Below the pieces are notes generated by a model. It saw nothing but the letters and a program-made list of their open reading frames with translations. It was not told the origin of the DNA and ran no database searches. The translations under genes were made by a program, and so were the position numbers. A stretch of DNA of 64,000 nt, taken from positions 11,529 to 75,528 of the forward strand of contig JACRDY010000059.1 of NCBI GenBank assembly GCA_016218485.1. The letters are read 5' to 3'. Source of the stretch: Candidatus Falkowbacteria bacterium. Lineage in GTDB: Bacteria > Patescibacteriota > Patescibacteriia > JACRDY01. This document shows positions 34,667 through 35,381 of the stretch, piece after piece; the first letter of the stretch is position 1, and each line of letters begins with the position of its first letter.

Positions 34667-35119
34667 ATGAAGAAAAAACACGTGGACGCAGAGTACAGTC
34701 AGATCACCTCCTATATCTGGATTGGCACTAATCAGTGCTGTAATTTCCATTTTAAGAAAGAATTATTGCGGCAGGGGATTGACGCGGATATTAGTCTGGA
34801 AGAAGAGCGGGTGGATGAGCCGGTTGGTGTGCATCATTTTCTCTGGTTGCCAGTCAAAGATCATCATGCGTTGAGTCAGACACAGTTGCATATTGGGGCG
34901 GCTTTTATGGAAACGTTAGTCAAAAGCAAAATCAAGATGTATGTCCACTGCAAAAACGGTCATGGCCGTTCACCCAGTTTGGTGATGGCTTATTTTATCA
35001 CGCAAGGCAAAACGTATCAGCAGGCCTTTGACTTGGTCAAGAGTAAACGTCCGGAAGTACATCTTCGGCCGAGTCAAACAGCGGCTCTGCGGAAGTTTGC
35101 TCAGCGTCGGAAGAAATAA
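34667..35119 (+). CDS. Dual-specificity protein phosphatase
   Basis: VHCKNGHGRS (CX5R) active-site loop. Confidence 0.88.
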   Translation: MKKKHVDAEYSQITSYIWIGTNQCCNFHFKKELLRQGIDADISLEEERVDEPVGVHHFLWLPVKDHHALSQTQLHIGAAFMETLVKSKIKMYVHCKNGHGRSPSLVMAYFITQGKTYQQAFDLVKSKRPEVHLRPSQTAALRKFAQRRKK

Positions 35120-35186
35120 AAAAACAAACCCGTTCGCAATAGCGGGAACGGATTTGTTTGACGGTTCCAGGTTTGACACTTGAATA
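35118..35186 (-). ncRNA. Candidate small RNA with its own promoter and intrinsic terminator
   Basis: Minus-strand TTGACA (35219-35214), 16-nt spacer, and TATACT (35197-35192) preceded by TGn; terminator hairpin plus T7 at 35159-35118. Confidence 0.5.
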
Positions 35187-35230
35187 TTACCAGTATAACA
35201 AAGTATATTGTTGTGTCAATGGAATAGGTG

Positions 35231-35299
35231 TGGAGCTAAGGGGAATCGAACCCCTGTATTCAAGTGTCAGGCTGGAATACCGCCACCAGGCATAGCTCC
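35231..35299 (-). ncRNA. D-armless tRNA-like / tmRNA-TLD-like RNA
   Basis: GGAGCTA/TAGCTCC-A acceptor stem, AGGGG-TTCGATT-CCCCT T arm, 12-nt stemless D region, GTATTC/GAATAC stem with a 13-nt loop. Confidence 0.65.
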
Positions 35300-35381
35300 A
35301 CACCCAAGGCGAGTGTACCAGAGGTAGTATTAAAAAAATCTAAACTATTTAATTAATTAAAATTTTTGCCTTACTGTTGAT

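Follow-up and report, generated by a model that had tools for sequence, protein, structure and literature searches.

In the genome of a Candidatus Falkowbacteria bacterium (981 kb in a 91.6%-complete assembly, here G000), the window, that is, the whole 64,000-nt stretch of DNA that was analysed, contains a gene for a tRNA-like RNA followed by a gene for a small RNA complementary to it. The question raised by this locus is what a tRNA-like RNA accompanied by its own antisense RNA is for. A preliminary description of the window had proposed a two-RNA system composed of a tRNA mimic and an antisense partner, and this proposal is now strongly supported by co-variation. As outlined here, the pair is a real, widespread and apparently undescribed tRNA-plus-anti-tRNA module.

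Layout and fold of the locus

The RNA pair is encoded on the minus strand, between a dual-specificity phosphatase gene that converges on it and uvrA, which diverges from it. A stand-alone gene of the DndB/DGQHR family (PF14072; 38335-39414, plus strand) lies directly after uvrA. The features of the locus, with positions in the window, are the following:

35330-35344, minus strand: element TTTAGA-N4-TTTAA replacing a -35 box, some 12 nt before the -10 box
35320-35312, minus strand: extended -10 box TGG-TACACT (TGGTACACT), predicted promoter of the tRNA-like RNA, without a consensus -35
35300-35305, minus strand: 6-nt leader, pairing with A73 and the trailer (35231-35226)
35299-35231, minus strand: compact tRNA-like RNA of 69 nt with a cloverleaf fold
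35299-35293 and 35238-35232, minus strand: acceptor stem of 7 bp, with A3-U70
35265-35271, minus strand: anticodon loop C-C-UGA-C-A, with anticodon UGA (Ser) at 35269-35267
35255-35239, minus strand: T arm, normal
35231, minus strand: A73, CCA not encoded
35192-35219, minus strand: near-consensus sigma-70 promoter of the antisense RNA, TTGACA-16-TATACT with TGn, 11/12
35165-35186, minus strand: antisense 5' end of the small RNA, complementary to the anticodon arm over 13 bp plus 6 bp
35176-35174, minus strand: codon UCA in the small RNA, opposite the anticodon
35118-35159, minus strand: intrinsic terminator hairpin with U tract, ending the small RNA of about 65 nt
34667-35119, plus strand: dual-specificity phosphatase gene, convergent, its stop abutting the terminator

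Much of this layout had been recognised beforehand and stands. The extended -10 box, the perfect acceptor stem and the T arm are all present, no CCA follows A73 in the DNA, and A3-U70 does take the place of the alanine G3·U70 in the window copy. The same applies to the small RNA, for which the second promoter was recovered on a promoter scan, the complementarity of the 5' end to the central arm was borne out, and the long 3' hairpin with its U tract was confirmed by folding (z -4.2, 0/200 shuffles), although it is absent from the list of a simple terminator scan. The promoter of the tRNA-like RNA in the window is not among the promoter scan matches. The terminator is likely shared with the convergent phosphatase gene, acting in both directions. 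Once the leader pairs with A73 and the trailer, the acceptor stem of the precursor is predicted to reach 13 bp; leaders pair with the 3' end in 26/45 homologues, and the two criteria applied to such pairing select 5/41 and 3/41 ordinary tRNAs of the genome.

Folding of a 72-nt stretch gives a compact cloverleaf (z -3.0, 0/200 shuffles) in which the 7-bp acceptor stem is followed by one linker base, a D arm, an anticodon arm and a T arm, with no variable loop. The preliminary description had seen no D stem and a 13-nt loop in place of an anticodon loop, and neither reading holds. In the window copy the D arm consists of a 3-bp stem (GCC/GGC) closing a UGGU loop, and all three pairs co-vary in homologues (double changes in 3/3, with 99.1% of cells paired in 80 homologues). 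The anticodon arm has a 9-bp stem, interrupted by a single C-U mismatch, and its 7-nt loop, CCUGACA, presents the anticodon UGA. In 45 homologues this symmetric loop register gives a mean of 5.4/7 pairs versus 3.0-3.7 in shifted registers; a shifted or four-base anticodon register was rejected because of its poorer stem fit. The small D stem, the true anticodon loop, the absence of a tag frame and the location of the genome's ssrA also undo the tmRNA-like framing that had been given to this RNA, the genuine ssrA being encoded in full at C50:11277-11678, adjoining smpB (ARAGORN).

In the window, ARAGORN finds only one tRNA-Glu and misses the tRNA-like RNA, which scores a marginal 29.8 bits with the Rfam tRNA model (cut-off 29) and matches no other Rfam family. 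It departs from canonical tRNAs in having neither a standard D arm nor a 5-bp anticodon stem nor a purine at position 37. That the RNA pair lies outside known families, as had been supposed, agrees with an Rfam search of the window and 11 homologous loci, the latter giving only sub-threshold scores for tmRNA, tRNA-Sec, mascRNA and a plastid leader family. Elsewhere in the genome, ARAGORN calls a 'Stop(tta)' tRNA with an Asn-like body and an odd GC-rich anticodon arm (G000:C29:1841-1919, minus strand). The tRNA set includes tRNA-Ile(UAU) and Arg(GCG)/(UCG), and Val(UAC), elongator Met, Ala(GGC), Gln(CUG) and Leu(GAG/CAA) were not called in this 91.6%-complete assembly.

Upstream, TTTAGA-N4/5-TTTAA precedes the -10 box of family homologues as well (by eye), and TTTAGA-N5-TTTAR with a -10 box 10-12 nt later occurs at 12 other places in the genome, including 39613 in the window. 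At several of these places the TTTAGA element is part of the start of a repeated cassette before small genes that are DUF559-like (endonuclease-like) or four-helix-bundle-like (by eye). The LexA-type box present before lexA, a direct repeat GTTC-N7-GTTC, was not seen by eye before the locus or uvrA. At lexA itself (G000:C42) this repeat overlaps the promoter and is followed by about ten tandem 9-nt units in the leader.

Homologues, spread and alanine identity

BLAST searches of 60 genomes of relatives yielded full-length copies in G002, G004, G006, G025 and G045, and a first covariance model built from 5 copies gave 9 strong matches in 4/7 family genomes. G000 itself carries a second copy (L041, G000:C23:771-842, minus strand) with anticodon CGA, G3·U70, U33 and its own partner, which is intact and is a better test object than the window copy. 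L041 is divergent from a clpP-like gene. With a second covariance model, validated copies were found in at least 21/151 genomes of the class and at least 6/151 of the phylum (both including G000), counts that are lower bounds since 32 candidates were scored per genome. A pattern with forced G3·U70, U33 and C37 matched 121 loci in 8/64 parts of a species collection, which extrapolates to an estimated 980 or so stretches in the collection, many of which are other things. Records that pass the filter and have a partner include Falkowbacteria, Magasanikbacteria, Parcubacteria, Peregrinibacteria and Saccharibacteria, together with three Eremiobacterota/Vulcanimicrobiota records. A viral scan returned 72 loci, six of which pass the structure filter; none of the viral loci joined the partner set with a clear loop partner, and annotated phages gave no family match.

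The structure is conserved across this set. In 80 copies aligned by, and hence fitted to, the covariance model, 94.6% of cells are paired versus 62.8% after shuffling (0/500), with double changes in 19/24 pairs and only 44-61% pairing in slid controls. Two family copies contain long hairpin insertions in the T arm or T loop (L043:1501-1625 in G001 and L047:1501-1612 in G004), and L043 retains a good partner and promoter, as if its tRNA had been broken before the partner. Three groups of compact G3·U70 RNAs stand apart. L064:1501-1571 (minus strand, G012) has a long arm capped by a 4-nt loop, lacks an anticodon loop, and no partner was found nearby. L244:301-369 (plus strand), in a Thermoguttaceae record, has the anticodon UUA, which would read UAA stop codons; the opposite strand carries a complement of 18-20 bp, and the fold z is only -1.05. 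L229, L231, L256 and L259 of freshwater Actinomycetota and several viral loci have the anticodon UAC and an encoded CCA; they failed the structure filter and have no clear partner.

The distribution of the family is patchy and multi-copy, and its neighbours are unrelated; copies in G004 and G006 are syntenic, lying between purN and purD. Of 74 neighbouring ORFs sent to Pfam (80 listed), 35 matched varied housekeeping families and 39 matched none; no integrase, transposase or protein toxin is among the Pfam matches shown, and no protein partner recurs. The module is therefore protein-free and about 200 bp long. Its mobility is not accounted for by the neighbouring genes, which counts against the best explanation given below.

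A key feature of the family is the identity of its acceptor. The G3:U70 pair is the main identity element of alanyl-tRNA synthetase (AlaRS), as stated by Mukai et al. (PMC5389517). Whole-genome searches gave 53 parsed compact candidates, from which seven ordinary tRNAs and L064, with no 7-nt loop, were dropped. In the resulting 45 homologues, found by BLAST or covariance model, G3·U70 occurs in 44, A73 in 45, G51-C63 in 45, U33 in 39, C33 in 6, C37 in 44 and an encoded CCA in 16, figures in which no feature was forced but which are not fully free of bias, the model having been trained on copies with G·U and C37. The tmRNA-type combination of G3·U70 and A73 is thus present in 44/45 homologues and absent from the window copy. 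When A or G was permitted at position 3 in a metagenome scan, all 55 structure-passing sequences among 118 distinct matches had G3. C37 is never found in the 41 ordinary tRNAs of the genome, which have A (31) or G (10) at this position. The anticodons of the 45 copies, after correction of the registers of L323 and L307 (the latter by eye), correspond to Ser (22), Thr (9), Leu (5), Met (2), Ile (2), Ala (2), Pro (1), Val (1) and Arg (1); position 34 is U or C in all of them, and the anticodons occur as wobble pairs (UGA/CGA, UGU/CGU and UAU/CAU). In 43/45 copies the identity element is therefore mismatched to the anticodon. The alanine anticodon UGC, which would not miscode, is found in 2/45 copies and in L175, and both L306 and L175, which carry it, retain a good partner. 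Because the window copy is the only A3-U70 copy among those found, carries C33 (common to five other copies) and has the third weakest partner match of 40, its sequence suggests that it has probably been disarmed.

Cognate partner RNAs

Almost every copy has its own strongly promoted RNA of about 60 nt, the 5' end of which co-varies with the anticodon arm. In 49/64 filtered copies the own flanks pair better than all 10 foreign flanks. In 44 copies that were selected for own-flank pairing, which inflates the cognate figures, Watson-Crick pairing is 91-100% at positions 29-37 versus 27-62% with non-cognate partners at variable positions, and 43 of them have the exact codon opposite the anticodon. 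An independent metagenome set gives own-arm matches in 37/44 cases versus 2/168 non-cognate trials. With codon-anchored partners, and L275, L320 and L328 left out, 36/40 copies pair better with their own partner than with any other of the 40. Within genomes, the own partner beats that of the paralogue by more than 5 kcal/mol in 30/30 pairs (in this genome, -25.1 versus -9.1 kcal/mol), and paralogues in one genome are accordingly predicted by these energies not to cross-react. The partner gene lies downstream of the tRNA-like gene in 27 of the 44 copies, upstream in 12, convergent in three and divergent in two. The partner RNAs, of about 52-73 nt, contain an antisense part and a terminator only. 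Their promoters score at least 10/12 in 33/41 copies, a score reached by 0/41 promoters of the tRNA-like genes.

Another type of partner is directed at the other end of the tRNA. In 7/87 copies, a perfect match of 9-17 nt starting from the CCA complement lies on the convergent strand, about 0.1 such matches being expected in 87 copies by our estimate; five further CCA-end matches of at least 9 nt were set aside as apparent chance or overlap artefacts. The viral locus L120 has a CCA-end match on the same strand. Several of the copies with a CCA-end partner have no loop partner, and in L275 and L320 the CCA-end RNA also has a 5-6-nt codon match that varies with the anticodon. Both tRNA ends needed for translation are therefore targeted, by anticodon and CCA-end partners. 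In 18/23 tandem copies, the window copy not being one of them, the precursor formed by read-through is predicted to lock up its anticodon in cis. This locking and the pairing of the leader with the 3' end are reminiscent of type I toxins, for example hok, whose precursors are inert. Another role for the loop, as a look-alike of a -35 hexamer, was rejected, as the partner's version serves an opposite-strand promoter in only 3/23 copies.

Proposed function, alternatives and known systems

An alanine-type acceptor on non-alanine anticodons, combined with a strongly promoted RNA against one end of the tRNA, is established at the level of sequence. From this we somewhat favour an RNA toxin-antitoxin module in which a mistranslating alanine tRNA would be restrained by an antisense antitoxin. 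The tRNA-like RNA would be processed at its 5' and 3' ends and receive CCA, AlaRS would charge it with alanine, and EF-Tu would deliver it to the ribosome, where alanine would be placed at Ser, Thr, Leu or other non-alanine codons, leading to toxicity. By pairing with the anticodon arm or the CCA end, the partner would bar the tRNA from the ribosome, and neutralisation would occur by duplex formation, perhaps with the help of RNase III. The partner presumably decays faster, so that an arrest of its transcription would free the tRNA. AlaRS, RNase III and a CCA-adding-family enzyme are all encoded in the genome. The miscoding step is plausible because induction of natural missense allo-tRNAs was lethal to E. 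coli, and those with G3:U70 inserted alanine (PMC5389517). Nevertheless, decoding may be poor or absent given C37, the C33 of 6/45 copies and the long anticodon stem. For the broader picture of widespread protein-free selfish modules, with a miscoding mini-tRNA toxin, a dedicated anti-tRNA RNA, private lock-and-key co-diversification and two independent blocks (anticodon or CCA end), the chances seem about even.

The main alternative, which we consider unlikely, is that the RNA is charged with alanine and does not decode, but blocks the A site, sequesters EF-Tu or AlaRS, or passes on alanine outside normal translation (as in a tmRNA-like rescue without a tag), its loop being mainly an antisense handle. 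It is because of the near-invariant C37 and the partners retained by copies with an alanine anticodon that miscoding is rated only slightly above even and such a mimic is kept in consideration. The long anticodon stem, the absent variable loop and the weak sub-threshold scores with the tmRNA model also speak for it, as does the U-turn (YUNR) loop, a loop type suited to antisense kissing. Against it, position 34 is only U or C and the anticodons come in codon-family pairs. The D stem, too, sets the RNA apart from the tmRNA tRNA-like domain that binds SmpB, and RqcH was not found in the 91.6%-complete genome. A more doubtful idea keeps the chemistry of the toxin-antitoxin reading and changes its beneficiary, the pair being a host-controlled, inducible switch for mistranslation or dormancy that is useful to the cell and not a selfish addiction module. 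The weak tRNA promoters with a common upstream element, the purN-purD synteny and the predominance of Ser, Thr, Val and Leu codons, at which alanine is a mild change, fit this idea. However, the search did not find the module in most genomes of the class (validated copies in at least 21/151), each paralogue has a private partner, a disrupted tRNA stands beside a kept partner in L043, and the window locus has no LexA-type box.

The roles of the two RNAs could also be reversed, with the tRNA-like RNA as regulator and the small RNA as the leader of a target gene, like the phage C4 and CI RNAs or a T-box attenuator. The small RNA does have a promoter, a codon-bearing target and a terminator, and in L275 and L320 there is a match to the anticodon as well as to the CCA end, the two tRNA contacts that T-boxes make. 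This is nevertheless improbable: in 13/21 tandem copies, including the window copy, the terminator is followed by an ORF on the opposite strand, convergent and upstream layouts leave nothing to attenuate, Rfam gives no C4 or T-box match in the window and 11 homologous loci, and the alanine identity would serve no need. It is very improbable that the RNA is an ordinary adaptor used to fill a decoding gap or to reassign Ser codons to alanine, as the cloverleaf with valid anticodons might suggest, since the genome already encodes ordinary tRNA-Ser(UGA) and tRNA-Ser(CGA), an antisense partner would be pointless, and in the orthologues of a relative alanine is no more frequent opposite UCA/UCG codons than opposite UCU/UCC (119/1452 versus 141/1380; codon-reassignment control, 179/1488 versus 284/1904). 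No constitutive Ser-to-Ala signal was present in 266 orthologue pairs, as would be expected if the tRNA is normally silenced. Finally, the preliminary description had considered that the segment might be an att-site copy of ssrA or a tRNA, in which case the inverted repeat would be due to chance. By E-value, the best BLAST match of the region is indeed to the T arm of tRNA-Ala(CGC), identical over 17 nt, yet there is no non-self match longer than 19 nt in the genome, to ssrA, a tRNA or otherwise, and such a relic is refuted, with hardly any probability left to it, by whole-structure co-variation in 80 copies and by their cognate partners.

If the toxin-antitoxin reading is correct, the module would represent a new class of toxin, the adaptor itself, and tRNAs of 68-71 nt with a 4-nt D loop and C37 would function in bacterial translation. 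The smallest bacterial genomes would then contain hidden addiction or dormancy modules of 200 bp that tRNA finders miss or call Ser. These natural lock-and-key pairs could also become switchable suppressor tRNAs.

Several known systems share part of this design. In the C4 RNA of phages P1/P7 and the CI RNA of P4, a tRNA-like RNA regulates a gene leader through a nearby complementary sequence. The module likewise joins a tRNA-like RNA to a nearby complementary sequence, but its partner is an independent RNA with a terminator of its own, mostly followed by no gene. It shares with the tRNA-like domain of tmRNA (RF00023) A73, the 7-bp acceptor stem, the T arm and, in 44/45 homologues but not in the window copy, the G3·U70 pair, and differs from it in its D stem and anticodon loop and in the absence of a tag frame and pseudoknots; neither an mRNA-like domain with a tag frame nor a stemless D loop is found, and homologous loci score 19-35 bits against the RF00023 cut-off of 47. 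A tRNA with a dedicated antisense inhibitor was found neither in Rfam nor in the literature searched, which was mostly outside subscription journals, and the supplements of PMC5389517 may hold related irregular tRNAs; the accessible part of a review of non-canonical tRNAs mentions neither antisense nor Patescibacteria (PMC7609411).

The closest tRNAs are the allo-tRNAs (8/4 and 9/3; Mukai et al., PMC5389517), which also have a non-canonical cloverleaf and the identity of one amino acid (G3:U70 in some) on diverse other anticodons, are toxic when induced in E. coli and often lie near toxin-antitoxin genes. In contrast, the module has a 7/5 acceptor branch in all 80 aligned copies, no variable arm and a tiny D arm, each copy has a cognate antisense RNA, a word ('antisense') absent from the main text of PMC5389517, and its neighbours are not protein toxin-antitoxin genes. 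The closest toxin-antitoxin systems are of type VIII, in which both partners are RNA, as described for sdsR-ryeA (PMC8610362) and CreTA (PMC8501985); in the former, the toxin is masked through antisense pairing with the antitoxin. The small RNA SdsR targets mRNAs, and RyeA overlaps it on the opposite strand (PMC8610362), and CreT is repressed at transcription via CRISPR-Cas (PMC8501985), whereas in the module the presumed toxin is a tRNA and the partner a separate gene. Judged by complementarity, the module would nonetheless have the two RNA genes and the antisense antitoxin that characterise type VIII.
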